DNA of 63,994 nt, filler included, from Globobulimina sp. (Eukaryota), in the NCBI GenBank assembly GCA_003354225.1. It is 9 parts of 9 records of this genome, joined end to end, with 100 filler letters (N's around TTAATTAATTAA, not from the genome) between each part and the next. Parts side by side here need not be neighbours in the genome. Positions count along the whole stretch, not along the records: positions 57,169 to 63,994 come from PIVH01000231.1; 8 more parts are not named here. One strand, written 5' to 3'. Made by a program: the position numbers and the translations under genes. Numbering within the stretch: the stretch's first letter is position 1; each line of letters opens with the position of its first letter. The notes under the pieces were generated by a model. That model did no database searches, was not told the DNA's origin, and saw nothing but the letters and a program-made list of their open reading frames with translations. Shown piece after piece: positions 1-63,994 of this stretch.

Positions 1-3000
1 CGCCGTATGGAGAGGAGCAGTGGTTGCCGCATATAACTTGCGTATTGAAGATAGAAACCATAGAGAAATCTATCCCCAGGCCGATGGCATTATATCTGTT
101 TCAGTCATAATATATCTACAAAACAAGACAATTTTATCGTGTTTCTAGACGGCAAATGCATAGAACAGAAACTATCCGTATCGTATCCTAATTTTTCCAC
201 TATAAACAACAATGGAATCTTCCCATTGCATATAGGTGGTTTTTATGGCGATATCGGACAGTCGTTCATCTATGAAACTTCGCTGAATAACTTGACAGTA
301 TCTGCCTTATATTGCGTAGGCGCCACATATAACCCACCCATATATAATCGCAGTGGTACCACCAACAATTACTTTGATCGCATCGCCGCCTTTCCACGCA
401 GTGTACGACAAAGAGCGGCTCCGATGCAGCCACGTAAATACGGCTTATGTTAGACATTATACGGCTTATATCGACGGCTTTGTGTCCATTATATTGGACA
501 CAAATTATTGGATAAAATCGCCGCAAAATGTGCAGAATATGGTGGCGCAATACATTCATACTTTGATTCAAACTCAGCCCAAGATAATGGCCAACTGTTT
601 GTCCCCAAGTTTGTCCCTAACACAAATATTCGATGCTTTTTACCAGCAATCGTTTTCCTTCCACATCAACGACACAAAGTAAGTACTATATGTATATCTG
701 ATGTGTTTTTAATACTAAATATATAAACAAAGAGTGCCCAATGCCACCGAGTCTCGCCACATAGCTTACAAATTGTTAGAATCCGCGGCAGCTTTGGCCC
801 GCTTAAAGCCGTCCACAATTAAATACAGCTCGCATCGCTCCATATCCTTATTAATCTCGCAATGCGTGGCCAAGGCCAAAGATCTACGCTGCCAAATCCT
901 CTCCACCTACGCAGAAATGTGCCACAACGCTCCCGATATCATGTTCACGCAAATGGCGCAAAAGCCTGCTTTTATCAAGGTACTATGGGATATTCTGCAA
1001 GAGAGCGACGCGGAGACCGACCACATCTCCAATCAAATCCTGACCGATACCCGCGTCAAGACCGCCAAGATCTTGATGGCTTTCATCGGCAATCAACGCA
1101 AAGTCTACAGCTCCATCACCAGTCCCACGCCCGTGGTCGTCTCCGTAGTGACGCGTAGCGGCCATGTACACAGATCCGCGTTGGACGAGCTAATCTTTGA
1201 GATCGGCGTCTCTTTAGGCTCACTGCCGCCCTCTTTAGCGTCCTATGCCTCGTTATTAGACATTGTGTTAGGCAAATTTAAGCTAAATATGCCCTCGCAT
1301 TCCAATGCCATTACTTCCTATATTCAACAGCATATCAACAGCAATAAGGAAGACAATGCGAAGCAGACCGAGCCGGAACAAAGCAACCCGGTGCCTTCAT
1401 TCTCGCGCAATAAGTCACTGAATATGAATATGATCCCTTTGGTGTCTGATAAGGATCAGATAAACTTAGTGGGCGCCTTGGGAGGTTTAATGAACTTAAT
1501 CTCAGTGAGTGCGTACAGAATACGCACCAGAATGCTGATGGATATATTGTCATTGGTCTAGACCAGCGATTGCAATCAGAAATTATTGTGCCGGCAACGC
1601 AATTCCTGGGACAAATGGATGGTGAATTTGATCTCATTGGAAGCGGATAATGACGACAGCAGCGCCTGCAATCAATTGGTGTCACAAATTGCGGCCACCA
1701 TTGTCTGGCGCTTTTTGATCAAAGACGATAAGGGTTGGATTTCTGTCATGCAGTTACTAGAGTCCTTAAATCGGAGAATATTGAATCTAATCCGTGCAGA
1801 AAAACAGATAGAAATACAACAGTCACAACAGCAGACCAATGGACATGGCCACGGCCACGAAGAGGAGCACAAACAAACCGCACAGCCGCATAAAATCTCG
1901 ACGGCAACGAAACTAAAATGCCGCGTATTGCACGAGTTTTTAGTACAAGTGTTGGTGTTGGTGCTGAATAGATTTTTAATGGACCAATTACGCTCCGACC
2001 ATGGACCCAAAGGCGGCATTATAAAACGTTCAAATATGAACGATCTATCCGACGCGTCTGAGAATATAAAATCGCGCACGTCTAAGAATTTAATATCCAT
2101 TTTGGATATCACTGAATGGGTATTATTCAATCACAGATTCAGTATGTTATCCATACCACGCATACGCTTGAAACAGGACGCCAAAGAAAGTGATATCACC
2201 GCGGAAATGTTATTTGATACTCCCGACAGTGACATCGACTACGAACCGGAGCAAATCCGCAATGAAATATTGTTATTGAAACGCTTATTATCCTGCTCGT
2301 TGAAGTTCATATCCTTCAAAAACGAGCGACAATTGGTATTGCGCCGATTGTTGCGATACTTAAAGGAAATATTACCGCACAAAGGCTGCCATTTAGTATT
2401 CGACGATGTGGTGAACGCAGCGCGCGAATTTTGTAACCGTTTGCAAACAGTGAGCAAACAAAAAGGCAAAAACAAACCGAAAATCTCCATCAAATCGGAA
2501 AACAATATGAAAACTATGCGCATTGCATACTCGTTTTTAAAAAATGCGTATTTACGCTATACACGCCGTGGCGATGACACTTCAGACAACAAAGCAAAGA
2601 AAATCCGCGCATTACAGGAGGAAGTGTATGCCTTTTGGGGCCCGTTGTTGTTTGAAGATAAAATCGATCCGAACACGGCCAATCAAATGAGTCTGCCCTT
2701 GATATCGGCAGAGGAGTCGCTGGAAAATGGGCAACATCACATCCATTCGTTGTGGGTGTTTTTGCAGCATCAGAAATGGTGGGAATACCAGTTCCAAGAC
2801 AAGAACATGAAGAAGTTCAAAATCGAGTATTCCAACCACGAGAAGGAAGAAAAGAAGAAGAAATTGAGCAACAAAGAGCAATTCGACAAGTATTACAACA
2901 GCTGCACCCACTCATTCTCTCAAGTGCACCACGCGGAAATCGCGCGCATCACTGATCTCAGCAACACCAAACGCAAAAACAAGCGCGACAATGTACGCGA

Positions 3001-6000
3001 TTTGAAGAAGTATATGGATTTCTTCGACGAGGACTTTCAATGTCGATTCCCCAATGCAGATACGCCTGATTTTTGGGAGTTGGATCCGCGCGAATCGGCC
3101 AATAACCACACCCGCTTATTGTTGGTGCGCAACTTTAAAGGCAGTAAGCATCTCCATGCCGCAGTCAATAATGGTACTCGCAAACGCGGCGTATCGCGAC
3201 CCGGTTCGGCCAGGAAAAGGAACAGCGGATCGAAGAAGCAGTGGTCGCAACTGTCGCAAGGCTTGCTGAAGGACTTGAAATTGCACGATGGCTTTCCGCA
3301 GCAGAGCCCGAATGCAATGCAGCCGCATCTGAGTGTGGAGTCCATACCGGAGGAGAAGGAGAAGCTAATGAGTGAGAGTGAGGAGGTCGAGCAGGAAGAG
3401 CAGAGTATGAGTGAGGAGGAGTTGGACGAGGAATATGTCGAAACGAATGAAAAATATCAAAGTGCCAATCTGAGTGGAAAGAAAATATTGTCGTCGTTGG
3501 ATGCTACGTCCATTTCCCCGTTTTTTAAGATTAGTGGCAAGATGTATGTGACTGAGCATCATCTGATATTTGAGGGACATGAATATATCGAAAATGTGCA
3601 TGAGCAGAATGCAGCGGATCAGATCAAGCTAACACAGCAGAGATACGACAGGGAGAAGAAGACCTTATTAATGGGCGGGAGTGACGAATATGAGTTGATT
3701 AAGCAATTAGAATCTGAAAATAAGCAGCAGTTTGAGGAGATATTGGCGTTTAAAGATAGCAATGTCGGCAATAATATCATCGAATATGAGATCTGGTCCT
3801 TGGCGCATATCAAACATTTATATCCGCGGAGGTACTTACTACGCGAGAATGGTTTGGAAATCTGGATTGCTGGCACGAGTCGCTCCTTTTTCTTTACTTT
3901 CAAGAACAGAAAGCGGCGCGGCGAGGTTATCTCTGCCATTTGCAAACATTCGCCGCGGTTTATCAAAGCCAATGCGAATAAGGATTTGCTGGTCAATCCG
4001 CTGAAGATGTTGAAACATGTCGGCTTGACGGAGAAGTGGCAGAAGCGCAAAATATCCAATTTTGACTATTTGATGGAGTTGAATGTGTTGGCTGGGCGCA
4101 GTTATAATGATATCACACAATATCCGGTATTTCCGTGGGTGTTGACAGATTATAATGGCGCCTCATCGGGTATTGATTTGACGGATGATAAGAATTACAG
4201 GGATTTGAGCAAACCCATTGGCGCGTTGAATGCAGACAGACTGCAAACGTACGTGCAGAGATACCAGGACTCATTGCAAGATACAAGCGACTCGTTCCCA
4301 TCCTTTTATTACGGCTCTCATTATATGTCTGCAGGCATCGCATTGTATTATCTGTGCAGAATGGAGCCATTTGCTACGTTGTACATCAATTTGCATGGCG
4401 GCAGGTTCGAGATCCCGGACCGGACTTTTTATTCCATCAACAATGCCTGGGATTTGTCGCTGAATAATATGGGCGATGTCAAGGAGCTGATACCGGAGGC
4501 CTTTTATTTCCCGGAGTTTTTGCGGAATATTAATAAGTTTCCTTTAGGTCACCGTTCAGGCGCTGACGGCAAGGAAGTGAACGATGTTGAATTGCCACTG
4601 TGGGCCAATGGCTCGCCAGAGGAATTTGTCCGGATTATGGGGGAAGCGCTAGAGTCAGATTATGTGTCCAGTAATTTGCATCATTGGATAGATCTCATAT
4701 TTGGTTACAAACAACGTGGGGACGCCTCGGTGACTGCGCACAATGTATTCTTCCATTTGACGTATGCCGGCGCAGTGGATCCAGATACCATCACTGATCC
4801 GACTATAAAGGCCGCCACGGAACAGCAGATCTATCATTTTGGACAGACGCCCAATATCTTATTTCATCATCCACATCCGCAGCGTGTGCATTTGACCAAA
4901 TGTTATTGGCTATGCGAGCTACATTTGCCCTGTAAAATGGACACAAAACTCGATATGTTGCATAAAAAGGAAGAGCATGAAGCACAACGCTCTCATTCCA
5001 GCCACAGTTCGCAGCAATCGATATCTTTGGATGAGCTCATCAATGAGACGGGAATTGTTAAAAACAAACCCTTCGTGATCTGTGAGTTTAAATTGGTAGA
5101 ACAACCCTCACATTTATCCATCGTCCGCAGTGGGCAATGTTTAAAAATATTCGACACTACAGAACGGATATTAACTTTTGAACTGCCAATGTTGGCGTAT
5201 TTAGATTACGCACAACCGGCTAAATCTACGCAGCTACGGACTATCATCGATACTGCGGCCACGCAGATACCGCCGGATTTGCCCATCTTTGAGTTGATGC
5301 CACCGGATTGGAGCGAGAGTATCATCTATCAAACGTTTGTGATATCCTCCAATGGGTTGTATGGCATTACTGGAGGATATCTGGACTGTTCTATCAAAGT
5401 GCATTGGTTGAAGGACGGCTCCACTTTGGCCTCGGTGACAGGATTAGAAAACGGACATAATGACATTATCACTTGTTTGGCATTGGATCATTCATCGCAG
5501 GATATGCTGATTTCGGGCGCCAAGGATGGCAGCATTGTGCATTGGAGCGCGATATTAAAGTCGGCAAAGCCAGGCAGAACGCCACTGATTGGCAAACCAT
5601 ACCGACTGCTGTCTATTCATTACGATGCGGTGCGAGTGATTGCGGTGAATAGCAAAGTGGGCATTATTGTGTCTGCAGCGGATGACGCGACCATTGCGCT
5701 ATATTCTATTGCGCGGAAACGGTTTGTCAGAGAGTTGCTGTTCGAAGGACGTGGCGATAGCACGCATTATAATTATGAGGTATTATTAATTGTTATCTCG
5801 GATAATGGATATATTGTCATACATTCTATTGATGAACGGATACCGTATTTGCGCGTATTGTCGATCAACGGCATCTTGATTCGCAAAATGAAATTAAATG
5901 AGATCTTATTTTCAATAAAAATTGATCAATCCAATAAGATGTTGATTTGTGGCGGCCAGGCATGCAAATTAACGTTTCGTTACATTCATAATCTAGAGAG

Positions 6001-7083: not shown

Positions 7084-7183
7084 NNNNNNNNNNNNNNNNN
7101 NNNNNNNNNNNNNNNNNNNNNNNNNNNTTAATTAATTAANNNNNNNNNNNNNNNNNNNNNNNNNNNNNNNNNNNNNNNNNNNN
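7084..7183. other. artificial contig spacer
   Basis: 44 N + TTAATTAATTAA + 44 N. Confidence 0.99.
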
Positions 7184-14255: not shown

Positions 14256-14355
14256 NNNNNNNNNNNNNNNNNNNNNNNNNNNNNNNNNNNNNNNNNNNNT
14301 TAATTAATTAANNNNNNNNNNNNNNNNNNNNNNNNNNNNNNNNNNNNNNNNNNNN
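14256..14355. other. artificial contig spacer
   Basis: 44 N + TTAATTAATTAA + 44 N. Confidence 0.99.
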
Positions 14356-22220: not shown

Positions 22221-24549
22221 CTAAACAGCACTCGTAAATTGTGTAACATGTAAATGAGCCGGAGCAGCCAACACAACTTCGCCAACATCTTTAGCCTCAA
22301 TAACATCTTCGTACGTAAAATGCTTCACTAAATTATCTGCTTTGGCTATCAATTTGTGTGATTTAATATTAATATGTCGCAAATGCACTGTTTTATCCAG
22401 TTTCTTATATTTCTCTGCTATAATATTCAATGTCTGCATGGCAGAGTAATCATAAATATTTGCATCTTTTAAGTGTATTTCAACAATATTCGGATCTGTG
22501 CCAGGCGTAAACTGTGCCGATAATATACCACAATTACCAAAAAACAATGGTCCATCCAAATGGTACACTGCCATTCGATTGCACCCATTCCTTTTCTTCA
22601 TAACTTTCAATTTTTGTACCTCATAATCTTCCTCCACTCCATCAGCCCTCTTCGCCTTCGTACCTGCCAATAAATTCCTTAATGATGGATTTGAAGATGA
22701 TTTGAGATTATGTATGTCCACAATGCGAATATATTCTTTCTCGATTTTCAAATCAAAGCCAGACGTCCACGTATATAACAACGCGGAAAATAGTATTCCT
22801 GATATCACAGCATATGCTAAATTTGTAACTAATGTCATAACAGTTACTAGCACAATGACAAAGGCGTCACCTCTGTTGATTTTATTCTGTGCTGGAAACC
22901 TTTTGCGTGCTGCCGCAGGACACATGGACATGAATATGATTACTAGCGAATGCCACTCGAATGTATGATACACCACAACGCACATAACACCCACTAAAGC
23001 GGACGCAGGGATTGCTTCCAATGCAGGCGAGGCCGCTAATATTATTATCAATACCAAGAGTGAGGCAATGCAGCCACTAATACGGAATTTGCCATTGGAG
23101 CCAGTATGGCAGTTAATCATTGACAGGCCGATGGTGGCGTGGCCGCCCATTGTACCTAAAATACCACCGATGATGTTTGCGCTGCCCATGGCCACCAACT
23201 GCTGTTTGGTTTGGCGCAATAATTGTCGTGTTTTACTATAAAGTGCATATGGAAAACATCAATTTAATACTTATTGTATGTAAATTAAATATAGACAGAG
23301 GTACAGTATACAACAGCACTGATTTGATATGAGCAGAAATGAAGGATAACATGAACCATTTTTGAGAGTTTGCAGATGAAATAAATATATAAAATAAATA
23401 TTAACAATTTCCGATATCGATTATAATAAAATTATTCAAAATGGTTAATGTTTCACTTCATTTGTTTGCATATTATGCAGTTGCAATCGGTGTTGGTGTG
23501 TAAAAATACCTTAATTCAGCAACAACATCAATGGTCAATAAATCTTCTGTAATACTGACCAATGTAATTAATATCGAAGGAGTTATAATTTTATTAAAAG
23601 TGGCGGCATCCAGTTTGGGTAACTCATACAATGAATTATTCCATATTGGTTTCGGTATTCCACCCGATATCTCACCTAAATCACCAATCAATGGCGTCGA
23701 ATGTCCGACTGCTAAACGAATAATTACATATTCCACAGCAGTACACATACCAATGCCTGCTAACGACGACGGGATAATACTTGTCAGTTTCGGTAAGAAC
23801 TCAACAATACAAAAAGTTAAAAACGTTAAAAAAATGACCCATAACACTTCTGCGATGGAATGGGTATGCCCAAATATGTGAAACTGCGACATTCCTATAA
23901 TAATTGCCAAGCCATTGACAAATCCAATCATAACAGTTTCAGGTATTAATCGACCTAATTTTGACACATTGCAAAGTGCCAAAAAAACAATCAATACGCC
24001 AGCTAATATGATTATGAATGGTAAGTAATTGAGACCGATATTATCATCCAACATAAAAGCTGTTAACACAGCACCAATACCGCCCGTTGCACCCGATATC
24101 ATTCCAGGGCGACCTCCAAAAAAAGACACAATGCCACCAATCAGCCATGCACTGTGCAGGCCGATTATGGGCGGAACACCGGCCAATAAGGCAAAGGCAA
24201 TGGATTCTGGCACTTGTGCAAAAGCTACAATAAAACCGGATATTATTTCATTTAAAAGATGTTTCCAATTTGTTCGATATACATTTGGATGATAACATGC
24301 TCGCAATCCGTGGAATGTATAGGATGTTAAGGAGTTACTGCGGCTGCGAGGGCTGTCATCCTCAGTGTCGTCATACGTGTAATCGTCCATATCAGTGTCA
24401 GCATCGTCCAATAATATTCCTTTTTTGGTAACATTTTGCAGGTTTGGGTAATTGTGGTGGTCATCGCTGTCGTCATTTTTATCAATTTGTATGTGTTGCA
24501 TTGCCACGCCAGCGGTGTTTAATGGTGCTTTTTCTTCACCATTTTCCAT
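22221..24549 (-). CDS. sulP: SulP/SLC26 anion transporter with a STAS domain
   Basis: AQVPESIAFALLAGVPPIIGL, FGGRPGMISGATG, GFVNGLAIII, GGHATIGLSMIN, and STAS YHLDGPLFFG. Intron about 23236..23509. Confidence 0.92.
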
Positions 24550-56051: not shown

Positions 56052-57068
56052 TTGGAACGATGCTTCGGCTTCACGCATTGGGCTGGAAATATGGCCGGCG
56101 ATGGTCCTCAATATGGCAAATTCGATGGCAGTCCGTCATTGAGCGGCGGCAGAGATAAGACCGGACCGCTCGCGATCTACAACGCAGCAATGAGTAATGC
56201 AGTGGTCATCTCCGCATTGACGAATCATATGACAATGTCCGATTACACCAAAACAAACAGCAACAGACAGAAGGAAATCCAGTGGGGCATCATTGGTCAA
56301 GTGGACGATGTGGCAGTTGGCTTTAATACGTCGTTTATAATTGCCACCCATCCAAACGGTGGAGGAGTAAATCGTGCTTTTCAAGCTTGGGGTACTATGA
56401 TTTAAACAAATATTTTTATTTATATGTTTATATATATCTGTGTGTTTTAATTTTATTTCAGGTGATCGCCAGTTGCAATATTATGGCAAAAAAAGAGGTA
56501 ATGCGCATTCCAGAGATTATACACTTCAATATATTGGATATTCCACTGATAATGGTATGTTTTTTAGCCTTTTTGTAATAAAAAACAATGTAATATTTTT
56601 CATAATGTATCGAAAACGTTGAGGTGCGTACTATTATTACGAGACTGAGCCAAATAAGAATTATCAAGAAACCATGATTGATGTCAAAAATTATCATAAG
56701 CAGATCAACGTACCCACAAAATGGTTATTATTGGATTCCTGGTGGTATTATAAAGGTGTTATATTATTCATTTTTGCCGTATATTATATTGACTGTAAGT
56801 TCTAAAATAAATAAGGTGTGAACAATGGCGTTAAGAATTGGACTGCAATGCCCTCAGTTTTCCCAGGCGGAATCAAGGCTGTTCAGCAGGCGACGCAATG
56901 GAAAATCCAAGCTCATAATAGATATTGGGATATAGATAATGTATATGCCGACAACATACCAAACCAACACGAAGTGGGCAATTATGACTTTACATGGTCC
57001 TCCAAATCATCGTTGCCGTTAACTAGAGCTTTCTGGAAATATTTATTCGATGCAAATACTGATTGGGG
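56052..57068 (+). CDS. putative glycoside-hydrolase-like protein, partial, multi-exon
   Basis: Introns 56392..56461, 56555..56623 and 56756..56815 give a continuous frame: ..AWGDRQLQYYGK..IGYSTDNGAYYYY..LLDSWWYYKGVNNGVKNW..VFPGGI..AHNRYW. Confidence 0.7.
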
Positions 57069-57168
57069 NNNNNNNNNNNNNNNNNNNNNNNNNNNNNNNN
57101 NNNNNNNNNNNNTTAATTAATTAANNNNNNNNNNNNNNNNNNNNNNNNNNNNNNNNNNNNNNNNNNNN
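57069..57168. other. artificial contig spacer
   Basis: 44 N + TTAATTAATTAA + 44 N. Confidence 0.99.
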
Positions 57169-57380
57169 GGTGAAATAAATCCGAATGAACAAAGTTGTCA
57201 GATGCTTTATTCTCCGAATCGATCCAATGATATTAAAAACATAGTTAATAATTTGGATCTCCTCCCTGTGTGTCCCCTGTGTGTTGTGAAGGTCTATTTA
57301 AATTGTAAAGTTTCTTTCAAATTAAATCATCGAACGTGTAAATAGCAAATGGTAGTTATATGTCAACCAACTTATATTGA

Positions 57381-58669
57381 TTAATTATTTGGGTTAAATA
57401 ATTGTTCACAAGTTTTGCCTTCCCAGAGATTATATGTTACTAAATTCTTACGACTCCTATCAATGGTCATTGAGCCTGGGCGATTTCTGCCATGAATCAT
57501 CTCAAAAGGTACTATCCGTAGGTCTTTAATCTTGAACATGATATAACGATTTTGTACGTGTGGTAAATTGTTAACAGACCAAACCACATATCGTAAAACC
57601 TTCAATAAATCAATTTTTTGTTGATGACATAAGGAAGTTGCTCCGATTCGTATACAATATGGTGGATATGCTTTCGGCTTTTTAATTTTTAAAACTTTCA
57701 CAAAATGTTTTAAAATTTCCGCCAATTTGGAAGGGCGCCATATTACTCCATTTAATCCTACAAAGACATAATTAAAGTGATTTGTATTCAAATTACAAAC
57801 TCGTTTAATTAATTTTTTCTTTCGTTTATTTTCTGATATTGATAATAGTTTTGAATTTAAATGGCGATGTATGACTCTTCGCCTGTTTAAAAGCACCATA
57901 TATATTGCATAGAAATCCAAGTACCGACAATGACAATTTTTTACGTTATGGCATATTGGCGGAGACATATAAATCCGCTTTGGTTCACCTCTAAACTCCT
58001 GGTTTTTATACCAATGAACCAAGATTTGTAAATATTGTCTGTGATATGGTTTGTTTAAGTTATGCTGTGAAATATCACCCCATCGTAAACCTGTGGTTAT
58101 ATTCTCCCAATCCGCATTTTCTGTACTGTCGGTATACAAAATCTCTGCGGGACGGCTTATAGTGAAAAAGCATATTAATAATAATAATGCTCTTGTCAAG
58201 GATTCCAATGGGGCAATTTGCCATGTTTCAGGGGTAATATTTATAAATTTTAAATAATCCACCAACCAATAAATCCGCATTGGTAATCGAATTTGTCTGG
58301 GTTTTTTATATAATTTCAACATGGTGGTATGGATTGTATCATAAAACCCATCTTCATAAAAATTAGGTTTCCCTCCACATGATTTGACCCACCAAGATAA
58401 GGCCGATGACCATGTTTTATGCGAATTGCACGATCCCAAACGTATACTACGATCATATTGCCAATATATTGCAAATGCAGGATTTATATTTGGTAAAAAT
58501 GGATTCTGTCCATGCTCGATATTGTAACCCCACCAATCCTTTAAAACTGACACATAATTTGTTTTTGTGGTGATTCTCCTGCTTCTGAATATATCTATTA
58601 AAATCCGTTTGGTAGTCGTCGGGTCATATTTTGCTACTTCACGATTCCAGAAGACTCGGCGTGTTATTC
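57381..58669 (-). CDS. tyrosine recombinase (YR) of the retrotransposon
   Basis: LLICFFTISRPAEIL (catalytic R), LRWGDI, WYKNQ (K), YCIRIGATSL (HxxR position), VVWS and NRYI (W, Y). The frame is open up to a candidate acceptor at 58670. Confidence 0.88.
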
Positions 58670-58806
58670 CTGAACAAATTTCATACTATTTTATATATAT
58701 TATAAGACGGAACGTGTAAAAGCGTTTTTGTTAAATAAACAGACACTGCTACAGTTTTTAAGTCAGTTCACTTCAAATCAATGTCAAGAAGGTGGTCGGC
58801 AGTTGG

Positions 58807-60542
58807 TTAGTTATATAGATTATGTAACAATCTCAGATTAGGATAATATTCCAATTTAGATTGATTTGCATTAATTTCCAAATCAAACATATCCACAATT
58901 CGATGAAATCTTGCCATCTCAAATCTGGATAAAGAATCAGCTAAACCGTTGAAATCAGATGGGATGAATTCTACTCGTAAATCAATACAATAAATACACA
59001 TTAAAAGTACAATTTCTTGTATATACTGCATCAATTTTGGGCTGCCTGCCCAACATTTATAGATACTGAAAAGCACAGATTTATTATCAATATATAATAA
59101 TAGTTTGCGCCCAGTTAAAATATCTCTATAATTGTATAATAGCATAATTACAGCATGAGCTTCTTGATAATTAATGGACATTGTTCGATGATTTATATTA
59201 TTTATATTTAATTTATTTAAGAAATGATAATTCGCAAAATGTGATCCTACGATAAAGCCACCACCTTCGTTACTTGCATCCGTTGCACCTGTTATTGTGA
59301 TTGATGGTTGATTTATGATTGAATGCATAGTAACGGTTTGCATATGCAATGTATATTGTAGCCAAAAACGTAAATCCTGAATTATAGGATCTGGAACCCA
59401 AAATATTTTATTTTTCATTCTTGGATTCTTACGGATTTTTTCATGAATCAAGCGAAGTAATCTGTAGCATAGGATTTTGGCTGATTTTCTGAATTGTGCC
59501 CAATGCATTATTTTGCCACAAATGGATTCTAATGCATGTCCTGATGCATATCGATGTAGTATTATTAGTTTTATTCCATGACATAATTGTTTATATTTAT
59601 GAGTCGGTATGTGTACATTTTTCAATTTTAAATTAAAACCAAAACCATGTACAACACCCTCAGTTATAGCCGTTTCATCCTTTGCATGAGAAACATTTAC
59701 TTTTAAATCATCACACATTTGATCAAATTTATGAGCCATTTCTTTTGCTTCTCTCTCTGAATGAGAGGCAATTAAGAAATCATCAATGTGTACTAAAAGT
59801 CGATCTTTCTTTAAGAAATGTAAATATTTATTCTCAAAAATCCAAATTAAAATCTGTGCAAAGTGTTGACAATTTGCGGCTGCTGACGCTAAGCCATATG
59901 CTTGGCGTAGATCACCAAAAGAAAGACCAAAAATGCAATATTGGATAAATTCACAATCATTTGAGGCTAATTTTAATTGTCTAAAAGCATCCTTTAAATC
60001 ACGTAACGAAACATATTCATATTTTATTAGGATTTCAATATATTTTCGGATATTTGGAAGTGTTGGGATTTTGCATTTTTCTTTCTCAATCAATTCGTTT
60101 ATGGATACTGTCCTCTGAGTGCTATATGAACCATGTCTGGCAACTCTGATTTCAGTCATTTGTTGTGTATCATTATTTCGTTTTGGTACACATAATAAAT
60201 TCAGATTATAATGGAAAGTCTTATGATTTGCAGTGATATAACTTTTCTTCGCTTCTTTTACTATCCGATTCAAAATTTCTTTCAATTCCTTTTTATTTCT
60301 AACAATATTTGATACATGTTTTGATAGTTTGGATGGGTCGCGATCTTTCAACCATAATGGATATCCATCCTCAATTAACACAATTTCTATGTCTCCATTT
60401 GGGTGATCGCTTAAATAGTCACGGAATAAATTGATATTAAAATGATGAGGGATTTCCGGCGGATTTATCCATAACTCTACCAATTCTTGGAGTAGATTGG
60501 CACAGTCATCATCAATATCGCGTAATTTTGGTAGTATTGTTT
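58807..60542 (-). CDS. reverse transcriptase + RNase H of the retrotransposon
   Basis: CVPKR, SLRDLKDAFRQL, QAYGLASAA, VHIDDFLI, LESICGKIMHW; RNase H ATDAS, INYQEAHAV, YIDNKSV, NGLADSLSR. The frame is open up to a candidate acceptor at 60543. Confidence 0.94.
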
Positions 60543-60795
60543 CTATATATTATTGGGTTTATATTATTGTATACGATTATAAATATAATTATTGATTATG
60601 AGTTATTTTTGTTGAGTGTAAATATGAGTCACCACGTTGACTCACTTTTACATAACGATTTTGAGTCAATAGGAACAGTTATTTGTTAGTTATTTGTTAA
60701 GTGTTTCTAACTTGATACAAACTAAACGCTTATGTTGGAAAAAATGAGTTAGATTTAATAAATCAAGGATTTTTATTTTAAAATTTAAATATATT

Positions 60796-63700
60796 TTACG
60801 AGAATATTTTCGGACAATTTGGGATGGTGTGATTTGCGTCACCACAAAGACAATCATGATATCGCTCAACACCGCCATTTCTGCATCTTGGTCCTCTTGA
60901 GACACAATTTTCATTTGGCATATGATATGCAGCACAATATCGTCCTGTTAATTTACGTCTAAAATCCTCTTTTAATTTAGGACGTGTAGTTATCATCCAA
61001 TCCTTGAATCGTTGTACTCTCCGTTCCTTTTGTTCTGATGTCAATCGACCACCATTTGATTGACTCCGACTCATTAATTTATTGGGAATGCGATCAGATA
61101 CATTTACATTTTGAAGCGACTCATTTTGCGTATTATTGTCGTTCCGCAAATGTTTCTGCGTTTTTATGAATTTTACATGGTCATAATCTCGGAACATCAG
61201 TTGTAACCACATAGGGTCAACATAACGCGATCCTTTTTTCTCAATTTCCAAATTTGATCTAAGATGTGAGTCTTGTATTGCTATCACAATTGACTTTGTT
61301 TGCCTCATTGCAGTCTCCATTGATTCATTGATAAATAAATAAAATAATTGTTCATTTAATTGAACATCAAAAATTAATGTATTTAATGCAAATTTCCATT
61401 GTTGCCAATCATTTATTGCAACATTTAACATTCGATTATATCTCGCAATTTCATCCAATGGTTTTATACGGATCGCTTTCTTTTTATAAAGCACTTTCAT
61501 TGAACGTAATAATTCCGATTCGTTGTTATTTACATATAATTGCCATACATTCAGAAGACGGAGGACTTCATCGCCAAATAGGAAGATATTTCTCTTTTGT
61601 GTAAATATCGTATTTATTGTTGTTGTGGGATTTGCTCGGACCAAATGAGTTGAGTCCTTCGCATTTTTTAAGACTGCCAACATGATATCAGTGAATTGTT
61701 TGGGTGAACATCGCCAAATAAACATCAAAACATCAGTCTCCGCATCGTATCGTTTATCTTTTGCGGATTTTTTGCCTTTCTTTTTCTTCTTCGGAGTTTC
61801 ATCACTGTCATCCGATTCTATTTAAATCACAACAACAAAAACAATCAAATTCATTCTAAGATTATGATATTTTGTGTTGACCGGTAAACAACATTCAATG
61901 CACGGTATCACATTTTATATTGTTACCTATTGGTCAGATACACAACTTTTTATATTTTTAATTTACATTTTTACGATTTCTGAGTGATAAATTGTGAAAT
62001 TTTATGTATCACTCTCATTGTGAAGATATGATGAAAAAAACGTTTCTGATTCAACGTCTTACAAACAATACAAAAACGTTTTATTACTCCAACTAAAAAC
62101 GTTTTCGTTCTGAAATCTACGAATTTACTCAAAGTCTGACCAAAGCCATACAGTTAGATTGTATACAAACTCATTCTATACACGGCTCACATGTAAAGGA
62201 GACAGATCCACAAACCTTGAATATTATCGACAATCGCTTTGTTGCTACCGCTATTCATCATATCTTGATATACATTTTGGTGATTTGACACTTGTTGTTG
62301 TTTATTTGTATATTTGCCAATTAATTGAAAACCAAGTGTGGTTTTATGGACATGATACTCTTTACTCCACCTTTCCATTCCTCGTTGTGTGTCTTTCAAC
62401 ATTTCATCCACGGACTGTTTCTGTGGTGATTTCTGATTTGACGAATTCGAGTCTTGTTTTGATTGCATTATACCAAATTGATTGGATAATGTGTTTATTG
62501 CTGGGATGATATCTTTGGCCCATTCTGGACACTTTGAAGGAACGCGATATTTCGAACTGTCCTTCTTATCATTCTCTATTTCATCATCATCATCGGAATA
62601 AATCTCAATTAAACGGCGTTTTTTCTTCGGAGGGATATAATCCAAATCATCCCATGGATCACGAATTCGTTTCTCTGAGTTCTCTGCTTTATCACCAATG
62701 AATTTTATTTTTCCTTTCTTTGTTTGATATAATTCGCTCGGAATCACATCCAAATCCTTATAATTTTTGATACGTTCACCAGCTTTGTTTATATATCCTT
62801 TCTTTTCAAGGAATATGTACTGTTTATAATATGTGTCCACAATAACATTTTTTGTTTCGTCTTCACTCAAATTCAATAAACGAATAAATTTCTCGGCTGC
62901 TGGTGGTAAATGATAATAAACCCGATAATTTACCAAAAATTGTGTCATCCGATGATTATACGCATTAAATTTGTGCTTGACATCTCCATATTTGATGGAA
63001 TCCTTTTTCTCAAATTGTCCGATGTTTTGAATCATTTCTTTTCTGTATTTAATTACTTTTTTAATTCGGGCTTTCCAATCAGATTCATATTCTTTTGATT
63101 TGTCAGCCTTTACGAAATTCGAATCTTTGAATTTCTTTATTCGTTTTTTAATTTGATTCACATCGTTTCCACGCTTATTCGCATCGACTTCATCCTTTCT
63201 CTCAATTTGTATTATATCATCTTCCACATTAAAGACACTGTCATTGTCCGATTCTTGTTCATGAACTGGAGTCGCTTCCCGATCGTTGTCATTGCTCTTA
63301 CCATCACTGTCCGAAGAGTCTGCGTCTCGACCTATCGCATGTTGTGGTGGTACGTCATTGGGAGGATTTGGAAAATCCCAGTTATCGACGTGCGCACCAA
63401 TATCAATTTCGTTATCACGTTTATCCCAATTCCTCTTCCTTCTGACCGATAATTCCTTATCGAACCATAAATCATTTGCTAATAAATCCACAATTTGATT
63501 ATGTTGAGGTTTCTCATGATCTTCATGGTCTTCCTCAAATTTCAATGCTTTTTCATATGCATCATTGAGGTCAATGAGTTCCCCTTTAACACCATTGGAA
63601 TTTCCATATGGATTTATCAATTTCTGTTTAACCATCGCAGCAATGGCCGCTATGGTTTCACTTGAAATGCCACCTCTTTTTGCTGCAGATTTAATCGGTT

Positions 63701-63803
63701 TTATTATTAAATAATGACCAAATTCTGCCTCTGGTGGGTATTGGAATTGATCATTTGGTACATGTGTACCATTGACATAAGTGTGATTTGGCTGGTCTGC
63801 CAT
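60796..63803 (-). CDS. gag-like ORF1, two predicted exons (63803..62216 and 61817..60796), 869 aa, with C-terminal Cys/His zinc fingers
   Basis: ATG at 63803. Phase-1 intron 61818..62215 (CAAG|GTTTGT...TTTAAATAG|AA) joins ORFs 62187..63836 and 60796..61728 in frame. C-terminus CAAYHMPNENCVSRGPRC..HDCLCGDANHTIPNC. Confidence 0.75.
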
Positions 63804-63994
63804 CTGACGCTGAGGACTGCTTTGGTTAGTTTGCAAGTTTGCTTTTTGTTTACGACGACGGTATTGATGACTAGAGTGCTTTTTGAGTTTAGGTAAAATC
63901 TAAATATCAAAAACACTTTTGAACACAACAATAGTTTGTTCTCTTCTGTCATATTCAATACCGGGATGATTTCTGTAAACCGAAATATCCACAA

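Follow-up and report, generated by a model that had tools for sequence, protein, structure and literature searches.

A putative conserved intron between two open reading frames of a Ngaro-like tyrosine recombinase retrotransposon from Globobulimina sp.

The window analysed here is a stretch of 63,994 nucleotides (nt) of DNA from Globobulimina sp. (assembly GCA_003354225.1), made up of nine segments of ~7.1 kb that are joined by spacers of 44 N, TTAATTAATTAA and another 44 N. A retroelement occupies the last segment (57169-63994), whose length is almost exactly that of one element, and no second copy of the retroelement stretch was found within the window. The minus strand of this segment holds four open reading frames (ORFs), none of them overlapping, in the order ORF1, ORF2, reverse transcriptase (RT)/ribonuclease H (RNase H; ORF3), and recombinase (ORF4), with spacers of 137-398 nt between them (Table 1). 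A preliminary description of the window had proposed that the interval between ORF1 and ORF2 is a spliceosomal intron retained inside a retroelement gag. A comparison with two related loci suggests, with a probability that we put at about 0.78, that the interval is a real, evolutionarily conserved U2-type GT-AG intron inside a Ngaro-like tyrosine recombinase retrotransposon.

Table 1. Positions of the features discussed in the text, counted along the window unless a related locus (L001 or L002) is named; a slash marks a splice junction.
Feature	Position	Strand	Remarks
ORF1, frame	63899-62187	-	570 codons stop to stop; first ATG 63803-63801
ORF1, coding part	62216..63803	-	first ATG to last exon base before the donor; ~529 aa
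Putative GT..AG intron, phase 1	61818..62215	-	398 nt; frame-restoring; homologous intervals in L001 and L002
ORF1 read-through tail and stop on unspliced RNA	62187..62215	-	TGA 62189-62187
Conserved 5' part of putative intron	62066..62215	-	blocks TGTGAG, hairpin-capable stretch, GACTTTGG-like, GGAG..AAACGTTTTT
ORF2, frame	61821-60796	-	341 codons; stop 60798-60796
ORF2, putative exon	60796..61817	-	first base after the acceptor to stop; ~340 aa
ORF2 C-terminal Cys/His motif	60814..60936	-	ends C-x-C-x4-H-x4-C, zinc knuckle-like by eye
ORF3 (RT/RNase H), frame	60549-58807	-	580 codons
ORF3 from candidate acceptor	58807..60542	-	counted from first base after AG 60544-60543
ORF4 (tyrosine recombinase), frame	58685-57381	-	434 codons
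ORF4 from candidate acceptor	57381..58669	-	counted from first base after AG 58671-58670
Candidate acceptor AGs, window	60544-60543, 58671-58670	-	before ORF3 and ORF4
Candidate acceptor AGs, L001	3821-3822, 5801-5802
5' leader motif, 22-23 nt	63949..63971	-	upstream of ORF1; common to L001 350-372 and L002 24-45
Candidate second intron, 62 nt	63900..63961	-	G/GTATTG...TTTAG; host-sized, unproven
3' non-coding motif	57256..57290	-	downstream of recombinase ORF; 91% identity over 35 nt with L002 3607-3640
Host intron candidates	679-732 (54 nt); 1505-1561 (57 nt); 24021-24071 (51 nt); 56795-56857 (63 nt)
Spacers between window segments	7084-7183, 14256-14355, continuing to 57069-57168

The element and its relatives

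Homologs of ORF2 were collected at a threshold of E 0.001 or better among 1.84 billion representatives, which gave 31 proteins, almost all of them 280-380 amino acids (aa) long. ORF1 has a single homolog, P0036, with 44% identity over 477 aa, among 7236 candidates. Related DNA loci were sought with an alignment of four sequences in metagenome, viral, and prokaryote genome contigs. The metagenome contigs contained two such loci, L001 and L002, with ~44% protein identity to the window element, and the same scan found no related loci in the viral contigs and the prokaryote genome contigs. L001 (6559 nt) agrees with the window element in its four ORFs and their order. Its ORF1 shifts frame near 1916 (~1916-1982), ~58 codons before the donor site described below, with the homology continuing in frame 1916-2164, and because of this frameshift L001 is taken as a decayed copy. 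L002 (3960 nt) has an intact ORF1 (105-1829, 574 codons), and its ORF2 joins the end of ORF4 through an internal deletion. The resulting frame, 2163-3464 (protein P0003), has the first ~200 ORF2 residues in frame with the C-terminal ~230 recombinase residues, and the RT is absent; ORF1, the interval and the leader are kept intact, as expected of a non-autonomous copy. The ends of L002 are identical over 118 nt (1-118 and 3843-3960), so that it closes into a circle or tandem unit of 3842 nt. The overlap could come from split direct repeats, from tandem copies, or from a circular DNA form.

Further relatives seem to be present in the sample itself. The summed depth of contigs of run X1 rises from ~20-30 to 45-76 over the RT region (59449-60588), and 98 of the 144 contigs of this run that could be placed on the stretch are less than 90% identical to it, which together imply that the same sample contains many diverged relatives of the window RT. 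Run X2 gave no match to the stretch, and run X3 only four short partial pieces.

The class of the element was determined from ORF3 and ORF4. ORF3 matches the Pfam family RVT_1 with E 1e-6 (29.0 bits as compared to a cut-off of 29.6) and RT_RNaseH with E 0.011, and its counterpart in L001 matches the same two families. There are 72 homologs of the RT ORF, many of which carry precomputed PF00078 or PF17917 assignments. ORF4 gave no family in the sequence-only searches of Pfam, NCBIfam and PDB, and the search of PDB by sequence gave nothing meaningful for either the RT or the recombinase. A structural model of ORF4 made from 19 homologs, with a predicted local distance difference test score (pLDDT) of 82.7, matched the Cre recombinase (E 3.5e-7, template modelling score 0.62), and also XerH, the integron integrase IntI, and the Tn1549 integrase. 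The neighbours of ORF4 in the Atlas carry PF00589 on 30-86% of their members. On the strength of this model the element is a retrotransposon with an RT/RNase H and a predicted tyrosine recombinase, and belongs to the order DIRS in the wide sense.

Within this order, excerpts of two surveys characterise Ngaro-like elements by an RT/RNase H upstream of the recombinase and the lack of a methyltransferase (PMC13465315, PMC6681497). Ngaro-like elements have split direct repeats, of which A1 lies 5' and B1-A2-B2 lies 3', and DIRS1-like elements have inverted terminal repeats, an internal complementary region, and a methyltransferase. No methyltransferase match was obtained in any of the four ORFs. 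Long inverted repeats were not found in the window element, L001 or L002, the best being 28 nt at 82%, where the ends of the window element and L001 may be cut. The element is closer to the Ngaro-like than to the DIRS1-like type, because the RT lies before the recombinase and neither a methyltransferase nor inverted terminal repeats or an internal complementary region were found. The window segment and L001 both stop within the element or close to its ends, and the circular assembly of L002 is compatible with split direct repeats, but also with tandem or circular copies.

The interval between ORF1 and ORF2

On the minus strand the interval starts with the donor CAAG/GTTTGT (62219-62210, the GT at 62215-62214) and ends with an AG at 61819-61818, reading ...TTGTTTTTGTTGTTGTGATTTAAATAG/AA, or ...GTGATTTAAATAG/AATCGG when more of the flank is included. 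Its length leaves a remainder of 2 on division by three, and when it is removed the frames of ORF1 and ORF2 become one open frame of 901 codons, with GAA as the junction codon. The position, donor, acceptor, length, and in-frame join given in the preliminary description are thus exact, for the minus strand. Inside the interval there are 14, 8, and 10 stop codons in the three frames, and the T content is 36.7% as compared to 24-27% in the flanks. A T-rich tract precedes the acceptor AG. Taken by itself, the interval is weak evidence of an intron, because 26 GT..AG pairs, from 10 GT within the final 50 codons of ORF1 and 8 AG within the initial 33 codons of ORF2, would give an in-frame join. When the whole window was scanned loosely, in-frame intron candidates appeared at 60 donor sites.

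The stronger evidence comes from the two related loci. The corresponding interval of L001 is 420 nt long (2091-2510, CAAG/GTAAGT...CCTTAAG/AG); the homology to ORF1 runs to ...DELQ, followed by G/GTAAGT with the junction between 2090 and 2091, and ORF2 opens between 2510 and 2511. In L002 it is 372 nt long (1798-2169, CAAG/GTAAGT...ATATTTAG/TG); ORF1 ends with ...NDIQ, followed by G/GTAAGT with the junction between 1797 and 1798, and ORF2 opens between 2169 and 2170. All three intervals lie after the same aligned Q codon, with one exon base before the GT, in phase 1, and removal restores the frame in three of three elements despite the different lengths. The terminal sequences are GTTTGT...TAG in the window, GTAAGT...AAG in L001, and GTAAGT...TAG in L002. 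L001 and L002 have 23 and 22 in-frame GT..AG pairs, respectively, and only a single pair is found at the same offsets in all three elements, which is the pair proposed from the window. It is this presence of the same pair, with codon and phase unchanged, in two diverged relatives that places the interval beyond chance.

The conservation of the proteins reaches both junctions, covering the last ~50 residues of ORF1 and the first ~35 residues of ORF2. On the ORF1 side the pattern RWS.E[YH][HY]V.K.T.GF.LI...Q precedes the donor, and on the ORF2 side the acceptor is followed by a run of Ser/Asp, a run of Lys, and DKR.D.ET. ORF2 of the window has no ATG for 32 codons, its first Met being codon 33. 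In L001 the first Met of ORF2 comes only after a conserved F.WR motif at the start of the domain, so a protein begun there would miss conserved sequence. Between the junctions the picture is different. The pairwise nucleotide identity is 53-67% in the flanking exons as compared to 14-57% in the 3' two-thirds of the interval, and the differences in length between 398 nt and 420 or 372 nt are not multiples of three. The interior of the interval thus appears to evolve as non-coding DNA. None of the ORF2 homologs (0 of 31) is fused to an ORF1-like N-terminus. Where the N-terminal part of the domain is matched, the match starts at most 37 residues from the N-terminus of the homolog, and the few that start later align with the C-terminal part only.

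The first 100-150 nt of the putative intron are about as conserved as the exons, and the remainder is near random. The pairwise identity is 52-76% in alignment columns 1-100, 40-67% in columns 101-150, and 14-57% beyond. The read-through tail of ORF1 lies here, 9 residues long in the window and 10 in L002, the residues being similar, and the TGA that ends it sits within the conserved GTGAG motif. The motif GGAG..AAACGTTTTT lies here as well, with three copies of AAACGTTTTT in the window, and the hairpin-capable stretch differs in sequence between the window and its relatives. The folding of the 5' part gave no stability signal, with z-scores of -0.59, 0.05, and -1.47, and in the alifold consensus 5 of the 33 pairs had changes on both sides, from three sequences, which are too few for covariation. 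The suggestion in the preliminary description that the interval may hold packaging or regulatory signals therefore agrees with the conservation of the first 100-150 nt and receives no help from the folding. The conserved 5' block probably tunes the efficiency of splicing or marks the unspliced RNA.

A second donor-like sequence, GTGAG[CT], overlaps the stop of ORF1 (62187-62192, minus strand), 25-28 nt downstream of the main donor. Together with an AG in the Ser/Asp codons (61800-61805, minus strand) it joins the two ORFs in frame in the window and in L002, but not in L001, and such a pair is about as likely as chance. We also considered that the intron might be a copy of the element termini, as an internal complementary region is, and rejected it; the only matches were of 7-15 nt, with E 0.04 or higher.

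Expression of the element and alternative explanations

We read the interval as an old intron that has been carried through many rounds of retrotransposition. Unspliced RNA would be translated into ORF1 alone, ending 9-10 codons into the intron at the conserved stop, and would also be the template for reverse transcription, and it would be because of this that every copy still carries the intron. The spliced fraction would give an ORF1-ORF2 fusion of ~870 aa with a zinc-knuckle-like end. Splicing would then determine how much ORF1 is made relative to ORF1-ORF2, a role similar to that of frameshifting or splicing in other retroelements. The preliminary description had likewise proposed a spliceosomal GT-AG intron that joins two retroelement ORFs, is kept through retrotransposition, and demands an unspliced template, and the comparison with L001 and L002 supports this well.

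The label gag that it attached to the ORFs fared differently. The retroelement itself is borne out by the RT/RNase H and the predicted tyrosine recombinase, but neither ORF1 nor ORF2 has a match to a family or a fold. ORF1 gave no Pfam or NCBIfam match above the cut-off and no usable match in the Atlas, and ORF2 no family match in Pfam, NCBIfam or the Atlas. ORF2 starts with an acidic run of Ser/Asp, followed by a run of Lys, and its model (pLDDT 86.5) shows a helical domain and a small C-terminal module of Cys and His. Against PDB the model gave no Foldseek match at E 0.001 or better, and with VIA-align the best Z was 5.7, to generic helical chains only. Cys is invariant or nearly so at positions 296, 306, 313, and 336 in an alignment of 19 sequences. 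A CX2CX4HX4C box is described for some tyrosine recombinase retrotransposons in an excerpt of PMC6681497, and the C-x-C-x4-H-x4-C of ORF2 is one residue short of that spacing. In the same excerpt, the gag of these elements is defined by position only (PMC6681497). The label is here only positional as well, coming from the location upstream of the RT together with the knuckle-like motif of ORF2. With a knuckle at its end, a fused ORF1-ORF2 protein would resemble a large Gag.

It is conceivable that the same donor is also used for the two enzymes, which would extend the explanation above rather than replace it, although we regard this extension as tentative and on balance doubtful. One donor in ORF1, after 62216, would be joined to three phase-1 acceptors, before 61817 for ORF2, before 60542 for the RT/RNase H, and before 58669 for the recombinase. 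This would produce ORF1-ORF2, ORF1-RT/RNase H, and ORF1-recombinase fusions, the enzymes would enter the particle on the shared ORF1 moiety, and the unspliced RNA would serve as the message for ORF1 as well as the genome. In the window, the first 130 codons of the RT ORF and the first 121 of the recombinase ORF contain no ATG; in L001 these stretches are ~93 and ~118 codons long as read from the translations, and still the N-termini of both ORFs are well conserved between the two elements. Both ORFs open at an AG that lies 0-5 codons past an in-frame stop and requires a donor of phase 1, and the joins to the ORF1 donor are in frame in four of four cases, two in the window and two in L001. The window spacers before the two ORFs, 253 and 137 nt from the preceding stop through the AG, have stops in all frames, and neither ORF is within reach of frameshifting or read-through.

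In the host segments, such an AG occurs by chance in 14 of the 54 ORFs with at least 120 aa, and as the window and L001 are homologous, the four joins amount to about two independent tests (roughly 0.26 squared). NNA-GNN codon pairs moreover favour the phase of the AG, which is shared by 12 of the 22 AG found in these zones. The two further introns would have to be 1673 and 3546 nt long, which would be extreme for the host, and a fusion of ~530 aa to each enzyme would be unusual. If the arrangement holds, the element would express its proteins from one donor and several acceptors, in a way that we have not seen described for a retrotransposon, and alternative splicing would serve this order as frameshifting serves Gag-Pol.

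Several homologs have extensions, set by the ORF caller, upstream of the conserved N-terminus. They contain many F, L, S, C, Y, and V residues, whose codons are T-rich (P0058, P0064, P0065, P0066, and P0073 for the RT; P0004, P0032, and P0013 for ORF2), and after them the conserved part often begins with E, D or G following S, L, I or T. Such extensions fit a translated pyrimidine tract followed by a phase-1 NAG/G acceptor.

A number of points weigh against an intron between ORF1 and ORF2. The splicing is inferred from the comparison of sequences, and the DNA comparison consists of three, of which L001 is decayed and L002 internally deleted. The contigs of run X1, whose kind is not on record as RNA, are colinear across both junctions (records 7 and 8), and no joint that skips 62215-61818 was seen among the 15 joints listed of 29, so that the count covers 15 of the 29 joints. 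In favour of the intron, on the other hand, no form of the element that lacks it was seen among the 31 ORF2 homologs, the run X1 contigs, and the same listed joints. The window donor GTTTGT is weaker than the GTAAGT of L001 and L002, and the interval is ~7 times longer than the short intron candidates of the host. Four such candidates, convincing and with strong donors, were found (Table 1) in heuristic scans that were too noisy for a length distribution. They are consistent with the preliminary description in that the interval is about five times longer than most host introns, and at 51-63 nt they are a partial check of the range of 54-79 nt given there. Finally, L002 has an ATG two codons after the acceptor, and an inspection of the N-termini showed that several ORF2 homologs begin at or beside a Met aligned to Met33 of the window (for instance P0006, P0011, and P0004), the starts being those of the ORF caller. 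Such starts imply that ORF2 may be translated alone in part of the family.

The last two points are also what would be expected if there were no splicing and ORF1 and ORF2 were separate cistrons. The interval would then be a spacer, perhaps with an internal promoter, and ORF2 would be translated from Met33 or from a non-AUG codon. The conserved stop and tail of ORF1, shortly after the start of the interval, agree with this, and so does the conservation of the interval's 5' part, which a promoter could also show. On the other hand, the 32-40 residues before Met33 show conservation between the window, L001, and L002, apparently also with P0013 and P0004, and contain no ATG in the window and L001, and L001 has a Leu at the place of Met33. 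As for the homologs, their starts were assigned by an ORF caller, which chooses the first start available. Separate cistrons would also leave unexplained why the GT, the AG, the codon position, and the phase are conserved across three different lengths. We therefore consider separate cistrons improbable.

That the GT..AG pair would be a chance pair without function in a decayed element is very improbable, since, common as in-frame pairs are (26 in the element, and 60 donor sites in the loose scan of the window), the same pair occurs at the same codon and phase in two relatives of ~44% identity that have better donors, and all four ORFs of the window copy are open. An arrangement with serial introns, from ORF2 to the RT and from the RT to the recombinase, giving a giant polyprotein, was also considered and judged unlikely. 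The last 10 codons of ORF2 have no GT in L001 and only a phase-2 GTAAAA in the window, and the candidate donors at the end of the RT are not conserved.

Non-coding DNA and comparison with known retroelements

The 5' leader motif was found with blastn at 95% identity over 22-23 nt, within non-coding DNA that is otherwise unalignable between the three elements. It contains GTATTG, and, read by eye, a YAG follows 44-62 nt later in all three (L001 350-403, L002 24-93); the leader of L002 also has a GTAAGT at the candidate second intron. The motif could belong to a second intron in the 5' untranslated region, or it could mark a terminus or a site of recombination. Past the recombinase ORF, the 3' motif is followed by a block that contains AATAAA (window 57169-57290, minus strand; L002 3607-3700), and the transcript probably ends in this region. 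In the spacer between ORF2 and the RT, the motif ACTCATAATC occurs once in the window (~60594-60645, minus strand) and twice in L001 (3659-3739). In both elements the motif borders a short hairpin that contains GC, with the arms GAGTCA..TGACTC in the window and GTCCAC..GTGGAC in L001.

The literature was searched in full text, with term look-ups in PMC8547959, PMC3783388, PMC3266345, PMC5718144, PMC6681497, PMC4157794, and PMC13465315. By such look-up the word intron was not found in four surveys of tyrosine recombinase retrotransposons, and in the literature covered we came across no intron described for an element of the DIRS, Ngaro, PAT or VIPER kind; early work by Goodwin and Poulter, outside that literature, may bear on the point. 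The expression of proteins from these retrotransposons is poorly known. A conserved intron that fuses two ORFs would mean that at least one lineage relies on host splicing, and such reliance implies that the element must export intron-containing RNA from the nucleus into reverse transcription. Retroviruses solve the export of such RNA with dedicated signals, and the conserved 5' block of the intron would be a concrete candidate for one here. The 31 ORF2 representatives and the 72 RT homologs in public data come from short contigs and are called as separate ORFs without introns, which implies that annotation pipelines probably truncate these proteins.

Ogre elements are legume Ty3/gypsy retrotransposons with long terminal repeats (LTRs) and an intron between ORFs of the pol region, the splicing of which has been shown by experiment. 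The element in the window would be similar to Ogre in that an intron in the coding region lies between two ORFs, splicing restores a long frame, splicing is partial, and the unspliced RNA is copied. They differ in that Ogre is a plant element with LTRs and an integrase and has its intron in the pro/RT region, whereas the present element has a predicted tyrosine recombinase and the putative intron lies between two upstream ORFs. Penelope-like elements, which have a GIY-YIG endonuclease, retain spliceosomal introns, and here the likeness is that the genomic copies of a retroelement keep an intron. These elements belong to another RT clade, however, and apart from their endonuclease they differ in that their introns are not known to join two ORFs.

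In elements of the Ty1/copia group (Drosophila copia, the EVD type of Arabidopsis, and BARE of barley), splicing yields a gag-only RNA, according to excerpts of PMC5580714 and PMC3735527. As far as those excerpts go, the balance between structural and other products depends on host splicing there as well, and the unspliced RNA is the genome. The direction is the opposite, in that splicing in Ty1/copia removes pol so that more Gag is made, and here it would add ORF2 to ORF1.

In content the element resembles the Ngaro-, PAT- and DIRS1-like elements, with which it shares the RT/RNase H, the tyrosine recombinase, an upstream ORF that is gag-like by position, and the lack of an integrase. The element in the window differs from them in having four ORFs instead of three, without overlap and with spacers of 137-398 nt, in that three of its four ORFs have no start codon, and in its putative conserved intron. 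Splicing that fuses ORFs, from an intron that is kept in the genomic copies, is known in other retroelements, and the comparison of the window with L001 and L002 suggests that it also occurs in the order of the tyrosine recombinase retrotransposons.

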